Positions 16,503-33,459 are shown, counted from the first letter of the stretch. The stretch: 64,000 nucleotides of DNA from an uncultured Planctomycetaceae bacterium (GCA_963813715.1 CAWFAK010000005.1:416001-480000), one strand, 5' to 3'. Translations and numbers: made by a program. The notes: generated by a model from the sequence alone, not told the origin.

Positions 16503-17380
16503 AGCTCGCTAAGATCCGACTGACCGATGGGACACCGCAATTGGCGGCCGTCGAGGACAATGACCGCCGGCTGCGTCTGCTCGATCTGGCCCAAGTCGAA
16601 AAGATCAAAAGCCTGGCGGACATCCTGCACTCGCCCGATCCACTGGGGCTGGCGCGATTTCTCATCGATCCGAAGTCGCCGCCGATCGACGTCGACAAAG
16701 CGGCCCTGCTGGCACCCATCGACGATCAGGAAGTGTGGGCGGCCGGCGTGACCTACAAGCGCAGCCAGGTCGCCCGCATGGACGAATCGGCGTCCGGCGC
16801 AGTCCACTACGACAAGGTTTACACGGCCGACCGTCCGGAGTTGTTCTTCAAGGCGACCGCGAACCGCGTCTCGGGACCGGGTGAGCCGGTGCGCGTGCGG
16901 TTCGATAGCCGCTGGACTGTCCCCGAGCCCGAATGGACGCTCGTCGTCTCCGACAAAGCGAAGCTGGTTGGCTTCACGCTCGGCAACGACATGTCGGCCC
17001 GGGACATCGAAGGTGAAAACCCGCTCTATTTGCCGCAGGCCAAGCTTTATCTGCAGTCGTGTGCCCTCGGCCCGTGGGTTTTCCTGCCGGAGACGCCGCT
17101 CGATCGCGAGAAGACCAAGATCGGCGTGACGATCGTCCGCAAAGGGAAAACGGTCTTCGAGGGAGCGACCGATCTCGGCCAGATGGTGCGTTCGTTCGAG
17201 GAACTCATCGGCTGGCTGGCCCGCGAGAACAGCTTTCCCAATGGCGCGTTTTTATTGACCGGCACGGGCGTCGTGCCTCCGGACGATTTCGGACTCGAAG
17301 ACGGTGACAAGGTGTCGATTGCAGCCCCAATCATCGGCACACTGACGAACCCCGTCGTCAAAGAATCGCGCACGAAATAA
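16499..17380 (+). CDS. Fumarylacetoacetate hydrolase family protein
   Basis: EVWAAGVTY, RPELFFK, VPEPE, GNDMSARDIEGENPLYLPQAK, LLTGTG. Confidence 0.9.
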   Translation: MKLAKIRLTDGTPQLAAVEDNDRRLRLLDLAQVEKIKSLADILHSPDPLGLARFLIDPKSPPIDVDKAALLAPIDDQEVWAAGVTYKRSQVARMDESASGAVHYDKVYTADRPELFFKATANRVSGPGEPVRVRFDSRWTVPEPEWTLVVSDKAKLVGFTLGNDMSARDIEGENPLYLPQAKLYLQSCALGPWVFLPETPLDREKTKIGVTIVRKGKTVFEGATDLGQMVRSFEELIGWLARENSFPNGAFLLTGTGVVPPDDFGLEDGDKVSIAAPIIGTLTNPVVKESRTK

Positions 17381-17411
17381 GCGGTGCTCAGCAGCAATGA
17401 TTGAGAGCTGG

Positions 17412-19056
17412 TCAACCGGGGTTCGACGAACCCTTGCCGGCGAGGCTGGAATTCGCGCCCCGCTCTTTTGGCGCTACGCTGGAAGTTGAAGACCTCGGCG
17501 CCATCGCTCCCTGTGAATTTCGTTTCAGCATCTCCTCGATCCGCTCCAAGATGTCCTTGCCGCTGACCTTCGCGAGCGGATGGCCGTGCCAGAGAATGCG
17601 GCCGTCTGCGCCAATAAGGAACGTCTTCGGAGCGAAGTCGAGACCAAAGGCCACAGCGGGCGCCGTGTCGAGAGGATAGGACTTCCAGGGTCCGGCCCAA
17701 TAGTGTTCCAGGTGCTTCCAGCCGCGCTCCTTCAAGTGCCGCGCAACGCTGTCGGGCTCTTCGTCGATGCTGATTGGCACGACGGTGACACGGTCGTTCC
17801 AATGGTCGCGATTCTGCGCTGGCACGATCGAGCTTCTCAATTGTCTCCTGACAGTACGGACACCAACTGAGCCAGAAGTCGAGACAGACGAGTTCCCCAC
17901 GCAGGTTGCTGAGCTTTGTATGCTTGCCGGTGGTCACGCTCACCAGGTCGATGTCGGGCGCCATGTCCCCCACTTCCGGAGGCAGCAGGAACGTGAACGT
18001 TTCGGGGGCCGAACGGGTCTGGAATTGGAAGGTTCCAAGATCGCGCGGGTGCTCTCCGATCTTGACCGTGTAACCTCGGTGGAACCAAAGGCATTGCGAG
18101 ACACGGTCCGTGATTCCCTTGAGAACAATTTCCCCCGATTCGGGGACTGGGGCGGCAAAGACGGGAATCGTGCCGTAGTGGCCGTCACGATAGCCGATCG
18201 AAACTTTGACGCCCTTCGCGGGCTGGCCGTCGCGCTTGCGCAGACGCACGACGGCCGTGCGCTGCCCGCGAAAAGCCTGTGGATCGGGGGGCGCGTAGTG
18301 AAAATCGATCCGACGCGTCTGGTCGGGGGCCAGATGGAGTTCCACGTTTTCGTGGTACCAGCCCGGATTGACTGGTTGCTCTACCGTCCCCGAAATGGTT
18401 TTGACTTCCGCCTTGGGGTGCGTAGAGGCCGTGATCCAGTAATGGCCCGCGTCCAGATCGGCAATTCGCAGTGGAGCCCCCAGTGGCAGGTCCATGCGAT
18501 AGGCGGCCCATAAATACTTGTTCCGTGTTGTCATTCGCATGACCGTCAACATCTGGCGGTCAAATGGCAGGTTCTTCCCGCTGGTCTTTCCCGCATCGAA
18601 GCGAATTTCGAGAAGTCCCGGCTTCTCGAGCGCGATTTCAAGTGGGCCCTCCTTGACCTCCGACCACTTGAATGGTCCGCGCTCGAAAAACCGCAGGAAA
18701 CCCGGTGCGAAGACGGCCACGTAGAACGGCTGTCCGGGAGTGGAAAGCCGCGCGGCAAACTCCGCCGGCCCGATCGAGCGAACACCGGCCGAGTACACGT
18801 CGGGCTCGCCGTCGTGACGGTTCATCGGTTGCCACGACAACTGCGCTTTGTCGCGTAAGTCTTCCCCATAAACCTCTGGCACGACGCCGGCCGGCCAGAT
18901 CATCCCAGCGGGCAGGCGAAAACGCAGCCTCAACTCGCCCGCTTGAACTGGCTCGCCTCGCACAGCAACGGCTCGACCTCCATCAGGTGGGGCCGTGCGA
19001 CTCGCCGAGTGGCAAACCGCCATGATCAAACCGAGGGCGACAGCGAATCGTCGCAT
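17412..19056 (-). CDS. Exported protein with C-terminal TlpA-like redoxin domain (frameshift near 17820)
   Basis: Signal peptide; GDMAPDI, LDFWLSWCPYC (CxxC); ISID and PKTFLIGADGRI in the next frame. Confidence 0.75.
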
Positions 19057-25263: not shown

Positions 25264-25379
25264 ACGGATGGGGTCGCATCGCGATTGTATTCAGTACCCC
25301 GCTGCTCAAATTCGGGCGTTACTCAAGATCGGGGTTGTGCCCGTGTTGAATCACGGTTGTGAACGTTGGGCGCCGGAGG

Positions 25380-25646
25380 TCAGCGAGTTTCGATCGCCTG
25401 CCGCAGTCGCCATCGCCGACACGCGATCCAAATCGCGACCGAAACAACTGCCCAACAACAAAAGACCAGCACAGCCGTGCGTAGGCCCCAGTAAGCAGCG
25501 GCGACGCAAACGCCGCCCGCGCCGATTTCTCCGACAAGAGCGCCCAAGGACCATGCCGGCTTGCGTTTCTTGGTGCTCAGGCTGACAACCGCAACGGGTT
25601 GCTGTCCGGTTTCGATTGGATCGAGTTTCTTCGGTTCGTCGCTCAT
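25380..25646 (-). CDS. Array micro-ORF, MSDEPK... membrane protein (88 aa)
   Basis: Shared ATGAGCGACGAACCG start; two hydrophobic segments. Confidence 0.6.
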   Translation of the reverse strand: MSDEPKKLDPIETGQQPVAVVSLSTKKRKPAWSLGALVGEIGAGGVCVAAAYWGLRTAVLVFCCWAVVSVAIWIACRRWRLRQAIETR

Positions 25647-25674
25647 CGTCACATTTCGCGATTGGTAACAGGAC

Positions 25675-25782
25675 CTAGCGTATCGCCGCCCTGAAGGCGA
25701 CGAGCAAAAGCGCGCCAACTAGGGACACGATGATGACGACGATGAGGGTAAGAAAAACCAAGCGGCCCGGCTTGTCGCTCAT
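25675..25782 (-). CDS. Array micro-ORF, 35-aa single-TM peptide MSDKPGRLVFLTLIVVIIVSLVGALLLVAFRAAIR
   Basis: Translated by hand; preceded by gagaataacggc, a variant of the shared leader. Confidence 0.6.
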   Translation of the reverse strand: MSDKPGRLVFLTLIVVIIVSLVGALLLVAFRAAIR

Positions 25783-25786
25783 GCCG

Positions 25787-25969
25787 TTATTCTCGCCTCA
25801 GTCGCTTTCGCGCAGCGGCGATAGCGCGCACAAACTCCGCACGATCTTGCCCCGTCTTAATCCGCTCAGCCTCTTCGCGGCTCAAGTGACGTCCTGGTCC
25901 GCATCGTGCCCGGATGCGATCAATTTCGTCCGGTTCAGACTGGTCGTTTTTGGAGGATTCGTCGCTCAT
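25787..25969 (-). CDS. Array micro-ORF, 60-aa soluble charged peptide MSDESSK...
   Basis: Preceded by caaggtgacggc; its TAA stop lies inside the leader of the next ORF. Confidence 0.55.
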   Translation of the reverse strand: MSDESSKNDQSEPDEIDRIRARCGPGRHLSREEAERIKTGQDRAEFVRAIAAARKRLRRE

Positions 25970-26009
25970 GCCGTCACCTTGGCGTTGGCTCGAGAGTTCA
26001 GTGAGACGG

Positions 26010-26219
26010 TCACGACTTGGGCGACCGAAGCCTGAGCAGCAAAAGAAGCAAGAGTCCAGTCGTGCTGGCGATGGCGTAGACCTTCGACAGAACCAGAATG
26101 AAGTTCCGCGGAGCCGACGTCCCCTCAAGTGCGCCGGAGAGCACAATCAGCCAGGCGATTAGCGACGTGATCAGCGTGATGATCAGGATGGTCCACGGTT
26201 GCTTTGGCCGTTCGCTCAT
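26010..26219 (-). CDS. Array micro-ORF, 69-aa two-TM protein MSERPK...
   Basis: Preceded by ccgctaagagtgacagc; two clear hydrophobic helices. Confidence 0.6.
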   Translation of the reverse strand: MSERPKQPWTILIITLITSLIAWLIVLSGALEGTSAPRNFILVLSKVYAIASTTGLLLLLLLRLRSPKS

Positions 26220-26237
26220 GCTGTCACTCTTAGCGGC

Positions 26238-26540
26238 TTACGTGGCCGGGTGCCGCCGGGCGAACCGATTGATGCCCAGGCCGGCGCAGTATCGTACACA
26301 AACTGGAATTCCGACGATTCCGAGAAACACGAACGCCAGCAGAAGAAATGGCACCAGCGCCAGAAGCATACGGCTCGCGACCAGCGGATGCTCCCGTGCC
26401 CATTTCGGAGGGCAAGGTGGGCCGTATCGCTCCGGCCTTCGTGCGGTCGGAAAATAGCGATCACGATGGATCAACAAGACTGCCGCGATCCAGGTGGGGG
26501 CGACGATAGTTGCGACCACGATAGCCACTGTTTCGACCAT
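26238..26540 (-). CDS. Array micro-ORF, 100-aa two-TM protein MVETV...
   Basis: Preceded by the exact leader ccgccgctagaatgacggc. Confidence 0.6.
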   Translation of the reverse strand: MVETVAIVVATIVAPTWIAAVLLIHRDRYFPTARRPERYGPPCPPKWAREHPLVASRMLLALVPFLLLAFVFLGIVGIPVCVRYCAGLGINRFARRHPAT

Positions 26541-26559
26541 GCCGTCATTCTAGCGGCGG
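26538..26559 (-). repeat. Shared leader module (-10 TAGAAT, 6 nt, ATG), exact copy 1
   Basis: 22-bp identity with 27523-27544 (catgccgtcattctagcggcgg on the + strand). Confidence 0.9.
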
Positions 26560-26668
26560 ATTCGGCGCAAAGAAAAAGCCGCCAGTTAGCGGGTTTGAAC
26601 TCGGCTCTAACGTGGTGGGATCGTTTCAGGATATTTCTGCCTGGTATGGCCCTTCAGACAAAAACTGC

Positions 26669-27034
26669 TCACGGTAGCTTGTCGAAAAAGAGATAAAGGG
26701 CAGCAATCCGGCCGTCCCGGGCAATGATGAAATCGGTCCCGGCGTATTCGGGTGCCTCGCCAGGGCGGCCCGAGACCCATTTGATCCGCCCGCCATCGCC
26801 CAATTCCTCTGGCGCGGCAATTGGCTGGTAGCGAAACTCGGGGTGAGTCGCCTTGATCGCGCCTGCGATGCGATCGATCTCATCGCGGCCACGGTAGACG
26901 CCTTTGTTGGGATCGTAGAACACGCAATCTTCGGTATAGAGCTCGCCGAGTGCTGCGCGACGCCGCGCGGGGTCGTTTTCACCGAAGACGTCGCTGAGAT
27001 TGCGCGTCAGCAAAGTCGAGATGCTGTTGGACAT
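26669..27034 (-). CDS. SnoaL/NTF2-like family protein
   Basis: LLTRNL.DVFGE.DPARRRAA..ELYTEDC ... YAGTDFIIARDGRIAALY; GAGGGGAG RBS. Confidence 0.85.
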   Translation of the reverse strand: MSNSISTLLTRNLSDVFGENDPARRRAALGELYTEDCVFYDPNKGVYRGRDEIDRIAGAIKATHPEFRYQPIAAPEELGDGGRIKWVSGRPGEAPEYAGTDFIIARDGRIAALYLFFDKLP

Positions 27035-27096
27035 CGCTTATCTCCCCTCGGCAATACGTCTCGCAATCAGCGTGGCGAAAAATCAACCGATGGCCA

Positions 27097-27375
27097 TCAG
27101 GGCGACGAAATGATCCAGCCGCCACTGTGCCACGCATCTGGCGGGCCGAATCGGCCGCGGTACCAATGCAAGGCTCGGCCGGCCGGTCCGCCAGCCCGCT
27201 GGATCGTAATCATCGGACGATAGGCGACGAGAAACGTCCCAGGGGAAATCCAACCACGCCAGCACAGCCCCCATGCGGGGCCGAACGACGCGGCATAGAG
27301 CGCCGCCGACAGACCCACGCTCCATCCGGCTCGGACGATCCAGCGATACAAGGATGGTTTCGGTTCGTCGCTCAT
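27097..27375 (-). CDS. Array micro-ORF, MSDEPKP... membrane protein (92 aa)
   Basis: Shared ATGAGCGACGAACCG start; hydrophobic LYAASFGPA..AYRP segment. Confidence 0.6.
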   Translation of the reverse strand: MSDEPKPSLYRWIVRAGWSVGLSAALYAASFGPAWGLCWRGWISPGTFLVAYRPMITIQRAGGPAGRALHWYRGRFGPPDAWHSGGWIISSP

Positions 27376-27399
27376 TGCCACCATGAGTTGCGCGGAAGT

Positions 27400-27525
27400 T
27401 CACGGGTACATGGTAAGCCAAAAGACGATGGCGAAGATTGCGAACGCCGCGACCCCGACAACGTGCCAGCGCGCGATCCGCTCTGATAGCTGGTCAAGCT
27501 TCTGCTCGCGAAGATCGTCGCTCAT
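27400..27525 (-). CDS. Array micro-ORF, 41-aa single-TM peptide MSDDLREQKLDQLSERIARWHVVGVAAFAIFAIVFWLTMYP
   Basis: Translated by hand; preceded by the exact leader ccgccgctagaatgacggc. Confidence 0.65.
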   Translation of the reverse strand: MSDDLREQKLDQLSERIARWHVVGVAAFAIFAIVFWLTMYP

Positions 27526-27544
27526 GCCGTCATTCTAGCGGCGG
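27523..27544 (-). repeat. Shared leader module, exact copy 2
   Basis: Identical to 26538-26559; 27515-27535 is also identical to 30924-30944. Confidence 0.9.
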
Positions 27545-27967
27545 TTTCGCGCGGCAGTGCCCGCCGAGTCGAATCCGGTCCAACGTCCCGTCGGTCTCGT
27601 GTCCCGTCCCCACCGATCCCGTCCCGACCGCGGCCCCACCCCGCTTTAGCGTCCCGATCCCCGCCCATCCCGTTTCGTGCAATTCACTCCCGTCCCGCGG
27701 CCCTCCCCGACGACCTCTGACGGGTCGGTGCAATCGCCAAATTGGCCGGGATTTTCTCGGTGAAACAATGTTGTCCCGTCCCGGTGTTGGTCCAAGGTCC
27801 CGCGGTCCAAAGTCAGGATTGCGAGCCTCTGAATTCTCGACCTTGGACTCGATCGAAGGCGTCCCGTCCCATTCTTTCCCCCTCGCCCGTCCCCTTCGGA
27901 TGGGAGAGGGTCGGGGTGAGGGCGGATTTCTCCGGGCGTTTCCCGATAAAACAACGTGTCCCGTCCC

Positions 27968-29479
27968 GAATGGCACTAACTCAAGCCGGAAGGAGTTGGC
28001 AGTTGGAAGTTTATGTCGGGTGAGGAGCGTGACGGAATGCGTCTCTGAGGAATCCCGGCCTCCTGCGAGAATGAGGTTGCTAAACGACCCATTTCCACAG
28101 GAGGCCAAGGATGGCGCCATTTATCGAGTCTGTTTTGGAGCAGGTCAAGGGGGATGTGACCGAGGCGCTTTCGCCCGAGCGGATCGAGCAGATCTGTCGC
28201 GAACTCAATCACGTGTGGCGCGACTGCACACTCAATCCGATCACCACCGTCTATGCGTTCCTGCGGCAGGTCTTGGCGGGCAACATCGCCTGTGATCACG
28301 TGCCCCATCTCCTGGATCTGGATGTCACCGGCGAGGCCTACTGCAAGGCCCGCGCGCGATTGCCGCTGGAACTCTTCCAACGGCTGATGGAGGGGGTGGC
28401 GCGTGCTGTTGGTGCGCAAGTGCCTAACTGCTGGCGAGGTCATCGTCTTTGGCACGTGGATGGTTCTGCCTGTTCGATGCCCGACACACCCTCGCTGCAG
28501 GAGGCCTTCGGGCAATCGGGGGCTCAGCGGCCCGGCTGTGGATTTCCGGTGGCCCGTCTCCTGACACTGTTTGATGCCAGCACTGGCTTTCTCTTGCGGG
28601 TGCTGCCAGCTCCTTTGCGGTCGCATGACCTGTCGCGGGTTCAGCGCGTGCACGAGGCCTTTCAGCCGAACGACGTGGTCGTCGGCGATCGGGGATTCTG
28701 CTCCTACGCACATCTGGCACTGCTCAATTTAGCCGGCGTTTTTGCTGTGTTTCGCATCCATCAAGCGACGATCGTCAACTTCCAAAAAAGGCGGCCTTAC
28801 TCGCCGCAGAAGCGTGCGAAGAATGTCCCACGCGTGAAGGGACAACCGACGTCCCGCTGGGTCCAGTCGCTGGGCCGACACGATCAAATCGTCGAGGCGT
28901 TCAAACCGACCCAACGGCCATCGTGGATCACCCCGGAAGACTTCGCGCGGCTGCCCGAATCCCTGCTCCTACGGGAGCTGCGCTATCGCATCACTCAACG
29001 GGGGTTTCGAGTCCGCCAGGTGACCCTCGTGACGACGCTCTTGGATCAACGACGTTACCCGGCCGTCGAACTGGCCAACCTCTATCTGAATCGCTGGCAG
29101 ATCGAGACGAATCTCAGGCATCTGAAACAAACGCTCCGCATGGACGTGCTGCGCACCAAGACAGTCGACGGGATTCACAAAGAGCTGGCCATGTTCGCCA
29201 TCGTTTACAATCTGGTGCGCTGCGTGATGCTGCGTTCGGCAAAACGCCAGCGCGTGCCGGTGACTCGGACCAGCTTCATCGACGCCCAACGACGACTCTG
29301 CCATGCCCCGCTCAACGCGGCCCCCAGAAATCTGATCGTTGTTCCCCACCGCCCAGGTCGTTGCGAGCCACGCGCCTCTAAGCGACGACCAAAACAATAC
29401 GATCTCATGAACAAACCACGTCGCCAACTTCAACAAGCCCTGATCCACAAACAAGTAACGCCTTAAGTTAGTGCCATTC
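27968..29479 (+). mobile_element. Complete IS4-family insertion sequence (1512 bp)
   Basis: Terminal IRs GAATGGCACTAACT(C/T)AAG; flanking 11-bp direct repeat TGTCCCGTCCC at 27957-27967 and 29480-29490. Confidence 0.95.
28111..29466 (+). CDS. IS4 family DDE transposase
   Basis: AYCKARARL, VDGS, GCGFP, VGDRGFCSY, Y..RWQIETNLR.LK (YREK-type signature); intact 451-aa frame. Confidence 0.95.
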   Translation: MAPFIESVLEQVKGDVTEALSPERIEQICRELNHVWRDCTLNPITTVYAFLRQVLAGNIACDHVPHLLDLDVTGEAYCKARARLPLELFQRLMEGVARAVGAQVPNCWRGHRLWHVDGSACSMPDTPSLQEAFGQSGAQRPGCGFPVARLLTLFDASTGFLLRVLPAPLRSHDLSRVQRVHEAFQPNDVVVGDRGFCSYAHLALLNLAGVFAVFRIHQATIVNFQKRRPYSPQKRAKNVPRVKGQPTSRWVQSLGRHDQIVEAFKPTQRPSWITPEDFARLPESLLLRELRYRITQRGFRVRQVTLVTTLLDQRRYPAVELANLYLNRWQIETNLRHLKQTLRMDVLRTKTVDGIHKELAMFAIVYNLVRCVMLRSAKRQRVPVTRTSFIDAQRRLCHAPLNAAPRNLIVVPHRPGRCEPRASKRRPKQYDLMNKPRRQLQQALIHKQVTP

Positions 29480-30181
29480 TGTCCCGTCCCAATGTTCCCG
29501 TCGCTGGGTCAACTGCTTTGCTGGGTCAATTCGCTAGTGAAACGAAGTGTCCCGACCCACCGGCCAATCTCTTTCCGGCTCGACTTCCCGGGCCCGACCC
29601 CGCGCAGTCATCTCCAGTGAGGGGCCGGTTTCTCCGCGGTTTTCTCGGTGAAACAACGTGTCCCGTCCCGGCGTCCGCGTGCCGGCAAGGGGCTCCGAAA
29701 TGTTGCCGGAGCTGCCTTCCCGAGGTCTGTCCTCCCGCCGCAGGCTGCCGGGGATCTTTTCTCCCCTATGTGAAAATGGATCCCCATCACCGCCGGGGAT
29801 CCTTTATTTGTCCCCGGCGGGGATCTTTTCACCAGCGGTCGAGACTCTGCAGGCCACGGACGCCGCGCAACCGCACCGAGAGAAGCCGAGCACAATCCGC
29901 GCGCAAGCGACCGCTCGCGTGCCAAAGCCGCTATCTCCATTGAGCCACAAAAACCCGATTCGGCCAAGATCAGTTTCGCGAAATTCGGGCTTGGCCGGCC
30001 GCGCGAGTTTGGCCGCTGGTCGCGGACAGGGAGGCGACCCTCTTTGCGCAGACCTTCGTACTGATCCTCAAGCTGGTTGACCTGGGTCTCGAGTTGCTGG
30101 CTCTGCGACTGGATCTCCCGAAGTCGCTCGACCAAGTGGTGTCCGTGTTGAAACACGGTTTTTCGCGATTGGCACGCGGGT

Positions 30182-30295
30182 TCAGGGAATCCCCGGCAAT
30201 TGAATCGCGTACAGCGCCCAGCCGACAAGAGCAATTGCGACGAACAGGACTGTCCACGTAATCCATGCTCGTGGCTTGTGAGTTGCTTCGATCAT
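30182..30295 (-). CDS. Array micro-ORF, 37-aa single-TM peptide MIEATHKPRAWITWTVLFVAIALVGWALYAIQLPGIP (may extend via a frameshift into the coiled-coil frame at 30156-29970)
   Basis: Translated by hand; preceded by ccgcTACAATggcgcc. Confidence 0.55.
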   Translation of the reverse strand: MIEATHKPRAWITWTVLFVAIALVGWALYAIQLPGIP

Positions 30296-30408
30296 GGCGC
30301 CATTGTAGCGGGGCGCGTCGATCAGCCGGTTTGCGTCGACCGGAGTGGGCGTTTGAAAAGCGAATCCGAGCGATTGGCACGGGAATTATCGGTCGGCGAT
30401 AATTTGGC

Positions 30409-30717
30409 ATGCTTCGCTTTCGGTCTGTCCGAACGAGATCGCTGCTCTTCGCTCTCGCCACTCTTGTCGTCATTGCGCTCAGCGTCCTACTGGCCTGGGG
30501 ATGGAGCCACTATCAGGACGGTCTGCAGAGCAAGAGGGCGACGGTCGTGGAGATCAACAACCGCATTAAGACGCTTGGGAAAAAGGCGAGCGTCTCGACC
30601 GATCAAGCGCAGCGCCAAAAGTCGCTTGCGGAGGCACACCGCCTGTTAGTGGAGCGGCGAGAATTGGAAAAAGAGCTGCGACCGCTCTTTCAAAGGCTCT
30701 TGGATGCCTTCCGATAG
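30409..30717 (+). CDS. Small TM plus coiled-coil protein, opposite orientation to the array
   Basis: N-terminal TM helix, helical C-terminus; GATAAT 5 nt before ATG. Confidence 0.6.
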   Translation: MLRFRSVRTRSLLFALATLVVIALSVLLAWGWSHYQDGLQSKRATVVEINNRIKTLGKKASVSTDQAQRQKSLAEAHRLLVERRELEKELRPLFQRLLDAFR

Positions 30718-30754
30718 TCGCTCACGCCGTCACCTCAGCGATTAGTACGGGAGT

Positions 30755-30934
30755 TCAAAGCAGACAGAGTTCGGCACAGATGATGGCGAACAGAACGGCC
30801 ACGCCAACCCCCAGATTGTGGGTGCCGCATGTCGACGGCCAATCCAGCCCTCTCGAGGCAAGCACGATCAAGGCCGGAGGCGCGGCAAATCGCGCTGCCC
30901 ATTTTAGAGTTGGCGCTCTCGGTTCGTCGCTCAT
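30755..30934 (-). CDS. Array micro-ORF, 59-aa MSDEPRAP... hydrophobic peptide
   Basis: Translated by hand; preceded by tggaatgacggc. Confidence 0.55.
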   Translation of the reverse strand: MSDEPRAPTLKWAARFAAPPALIVLASRGLDWPSTCGTHNLGVGVAVLFAIICAELCLL

Positions 30935-30960
30935 GCCGTCATTCCACGTTCACTCGCGGG

Positions 30961-31768: not shown

Positions 31769-33459
31769 CTACTCGTCCGTCACGCAGCCTTCCGACGCGC
31801 TCTTCACGTTCTTGATGTACTTGTAGAGCGTGCCGCGGGTGAATTTGTACGGCGGCGCTTGCCAGGCGGCGCGGCGTTTCGCCAGTTCGCTATCGGAGAG
31901 GGCGACGTCGATGCGGTTCTTGTCTGCGTCGATGGTGATGGCGTCGCCGTCGTGAACGAGGGCGATCGGCCCGCCTTCCTGGGCTTCCGGGGTGATGTGA
32001 CCGACGATGAAGCCGTGCGAGCCGCCGGAGAAGCGGCCGTCGGTCATGAGCGCGACCTCGTGGCCGAGGCCGGCTCCGACGATGGCGGACGTCGGAGTCA
32101 GCATTTCGGGCATGCCGGGGCCGCCTTTCGGACCTTCGAAGCGGATGATCACGACGTCACCCTTCTTGATGCCGCCTTTCTCCAGCGAGTGCAGCATGTC
32201 TTCTTCGGAGTCGAAGCAACGGGCTGGGCCGCTGAATTTGAGGCCCTCTTTGCCGGTGATCTTGGCCACGGCGCCGTCGGGAGCCAGGTTGCCGCGCAGA
32301 ATACGCAGGTGGCCGCTCGACTTAATTGGCTTTTCGAGCGAATGGATCACGTCCTGACCCGACTCGAAGCCTGGCAGCGCGGCGAGATTTTCCGCCAGCG
32401 TCTTGCCGGTCACGGTGATGCAATCGCCGTCGAGGAATTTGTTTTCGAGCAGATATTTCAGGACAGCCGGCGTTCCGCCGACGCGATGCAGGTCCGCCAT
32501 CACGTACTTGCCACTCGGCTTGAGGTCGGCGAGATAGGGGACACGTTCGCTGACTTTTTCGAAGTCGTCGATCGTCAGCTCGACGCCGACCGAGCGGGCG
32601 ATCGCAATCAAATGCAGCACGGCGTTGGTCGAGCCGCCCAAGGCCATTACCAGCACGATCGAATTCTCGAGGGCCTGGCGCGTGATGATGTCACGGGGCT
32701 TGAGGTCGAGTTCGAGCAGGTGGCGAATGGCAACGCCGGCTTGCTGGCACTCTTCGAGCTTTTTCGGATCCTCGGCTGGTGTCGACGAACTGTAGGGGAG
32801 TGTCATGCCCATTGCCTCGATGGCCGAGGCCATGGTGTTGGCCGTGTACATGCCGCCACAGGCTCCCGCGCCGGGCAGCTCCGCCGCACGATCGCCTGGC
32901 GCTTCTCATCCGAGATCTTGCCCGTCAGAAATTCGCCGTAGCATTGAAAGGCGGAAATGATGTCGAGCGGCTCATTGTCGAGGCTGCCCGGCTTAATCGT
33001 GCCGCCGTAAATCATCAAGCCGGGACGGTTGAGCCGTCCGAGAGCCATGATGCAGCCGGGCATGTTCTTGTCGCAGCCGGGGAGCGTGACGCAGCCGTCG
33101 TACCACTGGGCGCCCATCACGGTTTCGATCGAGTCGGCAATCAGGTCGCGCGACTGCAGGGAATACGACATGCCGTCGGTCCCCATCGACAGTCCGTCGC
33201 TCACACCGATGGTGTTGAACCGCATGCCGACGAGCCCCGCCGCCTGCACGCCCTCTTTGACGCGATCGGACAGCACGTTGAGATGCATGTTGCAGGGATT
33301 GCCCTCGTACCAGACGCTGGCAATGCCGACCTGCGCCTTGTTCATGTCGGCTTCGGTGAGGCCGGTGGCGTAGAGCATGGCCTGCGACGCGCCCTGCGAT
33401 TTGGGCTGCGTGACGTGCGCACTGTATTTGTTGAGCGAGTTCGATTTGGTGGCGGGCAT
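31769..33459 (-). CDS. ilvD: Dihydroxy-acid dehydratase (frameshift near 32870)
   Basis: [55 protein letters not shown]. Confidence 0.96.

Follow-up and report, generated by a model that had tools for sequence, protein, structure and literature searches.

The stretch analysed here, 64,000 nucleotides (nt) from an uncultured Planctomycetaceae bacterium (GCA_963813715.1 CAWFAK010000005.1:416001-480000; hereafter the window), carries on its minus strand at 25380-30952 an array of eleven small co-oriented units, in which a short DNA module recurs at gene starts and extends through the start codon into the first codons. The explanation that we favour, with a probability of about 0.55, is that this element is a portable start-and-junction module of one uncultured soil genus of the Planctomycetaceae, kept as DNA and shuffled by ordinary homologous recombination.

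An initial annotation, made from the sequence of the window, had listed ten minus-strand starts in the array. All ten were present with the upstream letters that it quoted, and ten of the eleven units start where it placed them; however, the start at 30725 opens a stub of 11 codons with GTG, and those at 30295 and 26540 lack the MSDE head. The exact repeats that it reported were also re-found (22 nt at 26538/27523, 21 nt at 27515/30924, and 16-17 nt encoding MSDEP at 25630/27359/30918). When up to two mismatches were allowed, GACGGCATGAGCGA had 10 matches in the window, seven of which were located on the minus strand at 25775-30940. Shuffled sequences gave 1.55 matches on average, and none of the 100 shuffles reached 10.

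Structure of the module

The genome (7.49 Mb in 18 contigs, 63% G+C) contains 78 sites that differ by at most six mismatches from the 24-mer TAGAATGACGGCATGAGCGACGAA and have a start codon in place, compared with three for the reversed control; a stricter set comprised 67 sites. The invariant core is TGACGGC-ATG-AGC-GAC-GAA-CCG(-AAG-AAA), which spans approximately -7 to +21, and the whole module covers approximately 28-45 bases. In the promoter flavour (25 of the 67 strict sites), CCGCCGC-TAGAAT is placed exactly 6 nt 5' of the ATG. As judged from sequence, these 25 modules have their own TANNNT box 6 nt before the ATG, unlike the promoterless cassettes of integrons, and TAGAAT-N6-ATG is predicted to act as a -10 box giving a leaderless mRNA that begins at the A of the ATG. 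In the internal flavour, the TGA of the preceding gene is followed by ACTCCCGTGCCAATCGC and then by TGAGGT. GAGGTGA is complementary to positions 1525-1531 at the 3' end of the genome's own 16S rRNA, a pairing that points to TGAGGT as a ribosome-binding site supplied by this flavour. The GACGGC spacer is not complementary to that end of the 16S rRNA. Weaker upstream variants also exist (e.g., cGGAAT). The fixed first codons would serve as part of the initial transcribed region of the promoter and as a standard translation-initiation region.

The arrangement TA[GCT]AAT-N6-ATG was found 77 times in the genome, compared with 3-16 times at other spacers of 2-12 nt. The spacer was GACGGC at 27 of the 77 sites, and those 27 head small open reading frames (ORFs). 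The initial annotation had considered that the motif might simply be a genome-wide start consensus of core genes; this is not the case, as ordinary genes with a -10-like box 6 nt before the ATG, such as a long 676-aa Hsp70-like ORF, use other spacers. The promoter part and the head are separable from each other: the second codon was other than AGC at 8 of the 26 TAGAATGACGGC-ATG sites, and GACGGC was missing before 13 of the 36 ATGAGCGACGAA heads.

The module contains stops in all three frames (TAG or TGA at -12, TGA at -7, and TGA within ATGA); thus, any upstream body terminates there, and the next gene begins with Met-Ser-Asp-Glu(-Pro). These stops are in use, the upstream stop being the module's own (-12, -7, or +1) in 10 of 27 consecutive cassette pairs. 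At 25787, where the TAA of a module had been proposed to stop the upstream gene, the ORF of cassette I (25787-25969) does end on the TAA inside the module of the next cassette, J. The gap from the upstream ORF to the module, compared by flavour, is dominated by the module's own stops and by the long open frames of GC-rich DNA.

Three known types of element were examined and rejected. A search of Rfam at E<=1 over four array loci returned no match on the modules. For a downstream box, pairing of the head with 16S rRNA covered at most 7 nt, and 270 of 300 shuffles were equal or better. A miniature inverted-repeat transposable element (MITE) or a repetitive extragenic palindromic (REP)-type repeat was rejected because the module lies over the start codon and the codons after it and is not bounded by inverted repeats.

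A second repeated start module, CCCGCTCCCGG-TACAAT-CGCGGC-ATG, was found in nine copies on contigs 4, 5, 8, 9, 15, and 16 (e.g., L022:7902); it heads small ORFs and sometimes adjoins the main arrays. At L022:7117-7515 (contig 9), two heads of the main module occur in tandem and in frame, a promoter-flavour MSDK head being followed 21 codons on by a GACGGC-ATG-AGC-GAC-GAA-CCG head, and they look like one module set before another.

Fixation of the head at the nucleotide level

Codon usage in the head was determined for 27 open MSDEP starts, which were picked by translation alone. Serine was encoded by AGC in 27 of 27 (genome usage, 26%), aspartate by GAC in 26 of 27 (62%), glutamate by GAA in 24 of 27 (44%), and proline by CCG in 26 of 27 (50%). 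Synonymous variation began at approximately codon 8 in a wider set, which was partly gathered with a 19-mer and is therefore biased at positions -7 to +12. Orthologous bodies drift (synonymous divergence, dS, of 0.07-0.47) while the synonymous sites of the head do not, and the head is thus fixed as DNA, by selection on the nucleic acid or by continued homogenisation. At the three loci read, out of nine, in the more distant species of the genus, the module was present as variants such as TAGAAT-AACGGC-ATG-AGC-GAT and TAGAAT-CACAAC-CTG-AGC-GAC-GAA.

Clustering and restriction to one genus

Whether the motif gathers in arrays, as the initial annotation had asked, was answered clearly: 42 of the 67 strict sites were located within 3 kb of another, compared with 3.5 on average and at most 12 over 1000 random placements. 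Neighbouring strict-site pairs were co-oriented in 27 of 30 cases, and the largest array held 12 strict sites, or approximately 20 by a looser criterion.

Within the genus, each of the 11 other genomes carried 2-59 copies of the 19-mer (at most one mismatch), whereas the 29 genomes searched from 28 further genera of the family and class had none; its reversed control gave zero matches everywhere. In a scan of bacteria and archaea with one genome per species, 57 of the 80 matches examined among those listed belonged to soil metagenome-assembled genomes named 'Planctomycetaceae bacterium', often with several sites per contig, and the other 23 were single matches in unrelated GC-rich taxa. A phage origin of the module was rejected. 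Nine matches on viral contigs lacked TAGAAT and the trailer parts and headed portal-like or other phage genes, and they are therefore regarded as chance matches.

The arrays are flanked by housekeeping genes (ilvD, enolase, pdxJ, a class II tRNA synthetase, and a ksgA-like gene), and no gene was common to the array flanks in the neighbourhoods examined. Some arrays include IS1-, IS4-, and IS200-type transposases and, in one case, a PIN/RHH pair. The genome has 11 matches to PF00589 (Phage_integrase), none of which is within 10 kb of the clusters, in a search that did not cover serine recombinases and other classes; the nearest is a fragment approximately 13 kb from the contig-16 sites. No inverted repeat of the attC-like imperfect palindrome type was found at the cassette junctions, and the folds there were non-significant, so the earlier statement that neither an integrase nor attC sites are visible is upheld. 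The co-occurring recombinase that had been suggested was not found among the shared neighbours of the arrays.

Genes behind the module

With their first eight residues masked, the 71 module-headed ORFs of at least 30 aa formed 53 BLASTP clusters: one 12-member family, a few pairs and triplets, and 47 singletons. The bodies are mostly unrelated, as had been claimed, but the ORF at 27097-27375 (cassette E) belongs to a true protein family. The module-headed ORFs look coding, with a GC content at codon position 2 (0.505) near that of long genes (0.487) and away from that of random small ORFs (0.609). A membrane-type hydrophobic stretch was present in 38 of 61 module-headed ORFs, whereas the proportion among random small ORFs was 6%. 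For four cassettes, sister species have orthologues, and these kept frame and length, with a ratio of nonsynonymous to synonymous divergence (dN/dS) of 0.17-0.73 and the dS range given above. None of 49 module-headed proteins reached a Pfam gathering score, the best weak match being Cys_rich_CPCC (E=0.039). An immunity, toxin, or defence annotation was rejected at the same threshold for all 49, with the PADLOC and PHROGs libraries not run.

The 12-member family has the motif MSDEPKKRxxW...YPLSxGP, and a profile search retrieved it, often as tandem copies, from 70 of the 120 other genomes searched in the taxonomic family. At the few loci compared in other genera, it starts with MSDNKR, MSDEKR, MSEKKR, or MTENK, in other codons and behind ordinary, non-identical upstream sequence. 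As these homologues already start similarly, the head is probably native to this family, and its conversion into a fixed DNA unit that now also precedes unrelated bodies probably took place in the present genus alone. Nearly all of 120 metagenome homologues were named 'hypothetical', with one doubtful different name and no precomputed Pfam domain. Twenty-three of the 120 do not start with MSDE, and most of those examined carry MSDEP internally behind an upstream extension, which indicates that gene callers often mis-start these genes. The ESM Atlas neighbours were unnamed Planctomycetota clusters only. The AlphaFold model of the family is all-helical (pLDDT, the predicted local distance difference test, 83.7); it comprises a long hydrophobic helix and three short helices and had no PDB match at E<=0.001.

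The other bodies are lineage-restricted. Among 5.8 billion proteins, a 60-aa cassette protein had four homologues and a 110-aa one had eight, and a single one of 150 further genomes of the order contained the latter. Distant homologues of this 110-aa soluble protein (56-66% identity) begin with MVDPR or MKNDP, and close ones begin with MSDG, MSDA, MSDEP, or MSEER; this comparison of protein sequences hints that its head was acquired. Our guess is that the small proteins form an envelope or defence-related accessory repertoire.

The array of the window

The array is bordered by a DUF2007 gene with hypothetical neighbours on one side and by ilvD on the other, and the window beyond it contains PSCyt2, PSD1, and DUF1501 genes, which are planctomycete markers. 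The features of the array are given below.

30755..30952, minus strand: cassette A, with the module tGGAAT-GACGGC-ATG-AGC-GAC-GAA-CCG, its ATG at 30934, and a 59-aa ORF (MSDEPRAPTL...) with one hydrophobic segment.
30690..30765, minus strand: remnant cassette with the internal-flavour module TGA-ACTCCCGTACTAATCGC-TGAGGT-GACGGC-GTG-AGC-GAC and a GTG start at 30725 followed by just 11 codons.
30409..30717, plus strand: 102-aa ORF within the array, without a module, with an N-terminal hydrophobic segment and then a charged helix-like stretch.
30374-30403, plus strand: sigma-70-like TTGGCA-18-GATAAT (sequence match) ahead of the 102-aa ORF.
30182..30320, minus strand: cassette C, with the promoter-like variant CCCCGC-TACAAT-GGCGCC-ATG, its ATG at 30295, and a 37-aa hydrophobic ORF (MIEAT) without the MSDE head.
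30136..30188, minus strand: 53-nt trailer element, copy 1, 3' of the cassette C stop, containing CCAATCGC and the hairpin CCGTG-TTTCAA-CACGG.
29480..30135, minus strand: stretch rich in repeats that includes a degenerate remnant of the module and shares 94% identity with the left edge of the largest array (contig 15, 99899-100434).
27968..29479, plus strand: IS4-family insertion sequence (IS) of 1.5 kb splitting the array, with 21-nt inverted ends (27968-27988 and 29459-29479) and repeat-rich flanks.
28111-29466, plus strand: transposase of the IS4-family element (DDE_Tnp_1).
27560..27967, no strand assigned: dispersed repeat copies of the GGGACGGGAC type, upstream of the promoter-flavour module of cassette D.
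27400..27547, minus strand: cassette D, with the promoter-flavour module ACCGCCGC-TAGAAT-GACGGC-ATG-AGC-GAC-GAT, its ATG at 27525, and a 41-aa ORF with a C-terminal hydrophobic segment.
27097..27395, minus strand: cassette E, with the head ATG-AGC-GAC-GAA-CCG at 27375 behind a different upstream sequence (GGTGGCA), and a 92-aa ORF of the MSDEPKKRxxW...YPLSxGP family.
26669..27034, minus strand: in-array gene for a SnoaL-like protein of 121 aa; it has a ribosome-binding site of its own and lacks the module.
26238..26592, minus strand: cassette G, with the promoter-flavour module AATCCGCCGC-TAGAAT-GACGGC-ATG, its ATG at 26540, and a 100-aa ORF (MVETV) with two hydrophobic segments and no MSDE head.
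26579-26592, minus strand: terminator-like hairpin 5' of the cassette G module, the only clear one preceding a module in the window.
26010..26240, minus strand: cassette H, with the module variant GCCGC-TAAGAG-TGACAGC-ATG-AGC-GAA, its ATG at 26219, and a 69-aa ORF with two hydrophobic segments and orthologues in two sister species.
25787..26009, minus strand: cassette I, with the internal-flavour TGAACTCTCGAGCCAACGCC-AAGGT-GACGGC-ATG, its ATG at 25969, and a 60-aa hydrophilic protein.
25675..25794, minus strand: cassette J, with the module GAGAAT-AACGGC-ATG-AGC-GAC-AAG, its ATG at 25782, and 35 aa that form a single hydrophobic helix.
25380..25665, minus strand: cassette K, with the head ATG-AGC-GAC-GAA-CCG-AAG-AAA at 25646, 3' of CCAATCGCGAAATGTGACG, and an 88-aa ORF.
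25334..25386, minus strand: 53-nt trailer/hairpin element, copy 2, at the downstream end of the array.

The IS4-family element has five further copies in the genome (98-100% identity). Contigs of another sample contain the IS-free site (joint 27956->29480; run X3), and the insertion is therefore recent or polymorphic. Two sister species also have the SnoaL-like gene within their arrays, at 92% and 89% identity.

Several side observations were made on the array and its surroundings. Behind cassette stops of other arrays and species there are trailers related to the 53-nt element, made up of ACTCCCGTGCCAATCGC, a variable stretch resembling a hairpin, and CACTACC. The dispersed repeat built on GGGACGGGAC(A)CGTTGTTTCACCGAGAAAA occurs at 27560-27967 and 29480-29700 and is often located just 5' of promoter-flavour modules; its 10-mer was counted 363 times in the genome, compared with 10-12 times for permuted controls, and matches of approximately 100 nt were found genus-wide. 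The ilvD gene (31769-33459) is split into two overlapping frames at approximately 32875, where it is one base short in a G run compared with two sister species, by a homopolymer assembly error or a real frameshift. Thioredoxin or AhpC/TSA-type genes occur in or beside four module arrays (window 17047-19056, L020:5097-6623, L022:5990-6400, and L024:2995-3648), which may be due to chance, the genome being rich in such genes.

Turnover between species

In the closest relative, the flanks and ilvD are approximately 91% identical, and the left flank, the head of cassette K, and cassettes J, I, and H are kept; the body of K differs from codon 14 on. A species-specific insert of 680 bp (L013, 6315-6994) is placed between two cassettes, exactly at the cassette I module (25969), and encodes a protein of approximately 170 aa of the secreted type with a signal-peptide-like start, indicating that ordinary genes are also taken up at module junctions. 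The block 26238-27514 is swapped, module to module, for a different body of 277 bp. The orthologue of cassette I has the promoter flavour in this relative and the internal flavour here. Synteny breaks at the array, as the ilvD side of the relative is on another contig even though its array contig runs on for 40 kb.

A second species, with an ilvD 88% identical, lacks cassette I precisely from module to module and also lacks cassette G. Where cassette I is missing, the homology blocks overlap by 14 nt inside the module, an overlap that, on alignment, has the signature of exchange between two module copies. Of 16 homology-block ends, which are not independent, nine were within 21 nt of a module ATG, compared with 13% of positions, and four of the other seven were borders of the module-less SnoaL-like gene. 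At the module-to-module joints in contigs, the sides were 20-22 nt, equal to the repeat itself.

Almost none of the approximately 20 cassettes of the largest array had a DNA match in these two species, whereas its internal-flavour module by itself matched at 95-100% over 43-56 nt. In the second species, one array of 6.7 kb is assembled as a mosaic from pieces whose counterparts occupy at least five loci of the present genome, one piece being inverted, and the pieces of an array of a third species map to five other places here. The gene-cassette system proposed in the initial annotation is borne out in that species differ by whole cassettes with breakpoints at the module, but not as a dedicated system with a co-occurring recombinase or other gene. 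Likewise, the content of the arrays is variable between species, but near-strain contigs show the same local cassette order; the shuffling is seen between species and not yet between strains.

Mechanism and alternative explanations

According to the explanation preferred here, module copies, which share 20-45 identical bases, would undergo homologous recombination or replication slippage, and exchange between them would delete, insert, swap, or relocate whole cassettes. General recombination fits the data because the junctions are inside the module, the arrays are mosaic, and synteny is broken at the arrays. A dedicated recombinase seems not to be needed, and the exchange would rely on the cell's general recombination enzymes. 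Selection probably maintains the module as a standard expression signal independent of the body, and the shuffling would be a by-product that makes the loci hyperplastic, as the promoter-early stem-loop (PeSL) cassettes do in T4-type phages.

Several results weigh against this explanation. The module logo contains no conserved -35 element and no conserved stem-loop, and four module regions had no stable stem-loop (fold z-scores of -0.88, -1.25, +0.31, and +0.33). The breakpoint evidence comes from loci of three sister species, and any gene-wise gain or loss would place block ends at gene boundaries. In contigs from another sample, at approximately 97-99% identity, K-J-I and H-G are joined in unchanged order, and turnover is thus not fast at the near-strain level. 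Finally, a promoter role cannot account for the presence of the same core and head in the flavours that are not promoters.

Because the last point leaves the core of the non-promoter flavours unaccounted for, a shared trans-acting regulator is a serious rival, although we judge it unlikely to be the correct explanation. The region from -7 to +21 would then be the binding site of one factor (a small RNA (sRNA) that pairs with the region of translation initiation, an RNA-binding protein, or a DNA-binding repressor) that switches all of these small membrane-protein genes together, and the recombination would be incidental. In favour of a regulon, the conserved stretch has the start codon at its centre and resembles a ribosome or sRNA target in size, its synonymous sites are fixed, and promoter and non-promoter flavours alike retain it, which a promoter role by itself cannot account for. 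However, every occurrence was read as heading an ORF and no antisense copy stood out, albeit with no dedicated antisense screen; the modules had no Rfam match, the complementarity to 16S rRNA outside the ribosome-binding site was no better than in shuffles, and no regulator gene was a common neighbour of the arrays. A regulon alone also leaves the three-frame stops and the module-to-module swaps unaccounted for.

Two further explanations are less likely than the regulon. In the first, which we consider quite improbable, the head descends from the old MSDEPKKRxxW...YPLSxGP family, and tandem duplication followed by frameshift, truncation, and read-through into new DNA would have made the different bodies, leaving just the start region recognisable under strong selection, with no exchange of pre-existing genes. 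The age, frequent tandem arrangement, and wide occurrence of this family, with its MSDNKR, MSDEKR, and MSEKKR starts elsewhere, agree with such a nursery of genes, as do the lineage-restricted orphan bodies and the existence of stub and truncated cassettes. However, the orthologous bodies are conserved about as well as the flanking genes, with dN/dS below 1, and divergence beyond recognition within the genus is therefore unlikely. The starts of the distant homologues of the 110-aa protein suggest an acquired head, the same body has different upstream flavours in different species, and module-less genes (SnoaL-like and secreted protein) move within the arrays too. The second, in which an unrecognised site-specific recombinase or other enzyme encoded elsewhere would act on the module as integron integrases do at attC/attI, is the least probable of all: the junctions are precise and inside a short conserved core, cassettes occupy different loci in different species, and the module is confined to one genus, but the arrays have neither a tyrosine recombinase within 10 kb (serine recombinases and other enzyme classes being outside that search), nor a gene common to their flanks, nor an attC-like imperfect palindrome or stable fold, many cassettes have their own promoter-like box, and 20-45 nt of identity suffices for general recombination or slippage.

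Comparison with known systems

The closest known parallel is provided by the PeSL cassettes of T4-type phages, and the likeness to T4-phage modules drawn in the initial annotation is apt. There, repeated modules surround small, mostly orphan, non-essential genes in hyperplastic regions, and homologous recombination without an integrase produces insertions, deletions, and replacements between close relatives whose ends fall in the modules (Arbiol et al. 2010, PMC2839356; Comeau et al. 2014, PMC4122927). The present arrays likewise have regulatory modules beside small orphan genes in variable regions between conserved blocks, with the indels between relatives ending in the modules. For the repeated strong sigma-70-like promoter of PeSL modules, a possible counterpart here is the conserved TAGAAT at a fixed 6-nt distance from the ATG. 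Compared with PeSL cassettes, the present system is found on a bacterial chromosome, at 10 or more loci between housekeeping genes (ilvD, enolase, pdxJ, and tRNA synthetase), rather than in a phage. Its module lacks a conserved terminator stem-loop and a -35 element, extends into the gene, where it holds constant the start codon and the first 5-7 codons, has a second flavour with a ribosome-binding site for operon-internal positions, and closes all three frames. The PeSL architecture is only partly mirrored, given that no stable stem-loop was found and that a single terminator-like hairpin precedes a module in the window.

Small accessory genes in arrays are also known from the rAID-1 orphan-immunity clusters of Bacteroidales, which are long arrays with repetitive intergenic sequences, reminiscent of integrons, and have a conserved XerD-family recombinase and homologues of known immunity genes (bioRxiv 10.1101/471110). 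Unlike these clusters, the present arrays have no recombinase nearby, and 0 of 49 proteins reached the Pfam threshold. Integrons share with these arrays the co-oriented small, often orphan genes and the cassette-wise variation of content between relatives. In contrast to integrons, there is no intI near the arrays and no attC palindrome at the cassette 3' ends; the conserved element is located at the 5' side, includes coding sequence and often its own promoter-like box, and forms many arrays per genome. Every integron hallmark tested was absent.

In the leaderless genes of Actinobacteria and Deinococcus, a -10 box is located 6-7 nt before the start codon, and such genes are known to share only the box and its spacing. 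The promoter flavour resembles them in its TANNNT box, 6-nt spacer, ATG, and lack of a ribosome-binding site, but in the present module the fixed part also takes in the spacer and 15-21 nt of coding sequence, and it recurs on unrelated genes. The upstream-homology-box (UHB) family of Borrelia cp32 reportedly combines shared upstream signals and first codons with divergent bodies and recombination between paralogues. The UHB genes are lipoprotein genes on prophage plasmids of a pathogen, and their shared coding part is the lipoprotein leader, whereas the genes described here are chromosomal, with a head of 5-7 codons and mostly unrelated bodies. No such module was found among the papers listed on leaderless promoters and transcription starts of Planctomycetes, in a search that was not made on the motif itself.

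Significance

Modules that combine an expression signal with a recombination joint are documented for T4-type phages, and the same logic appears here in a free-living bacterial genus and at many chromosomal loci. It is sharpened by two features, namely, DNA that is fixed through the start codon into the first 5-7 codons and the closure of all three frames. A bolder version, which we regard as improbable, is that of a chromosomal platform for cassette exchange and gene birth, in which the three-frame stop, the promoter or ribosome-binding site, the start, and the first codons would allow any DNA landing behind them to be expressed immediately as a small protein; cassettes would be traded between at least 10 arrays and between species, possibly via an unrecognised enzyme, and would supply small membrane proteins of fast turnover, e.g., for defence against phages or competitors. 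If the module is indeed an expression unit that is independent of the body, it would explain how small orphan membrane-protein genes emerge, spread, and turn over in large soil genomes. It would also be a natural example of a 'standardised' translation-initiation region, and the 19-28-mer would serve as a sequence tag for the accessory small proteome of this lineage in metagenomes.

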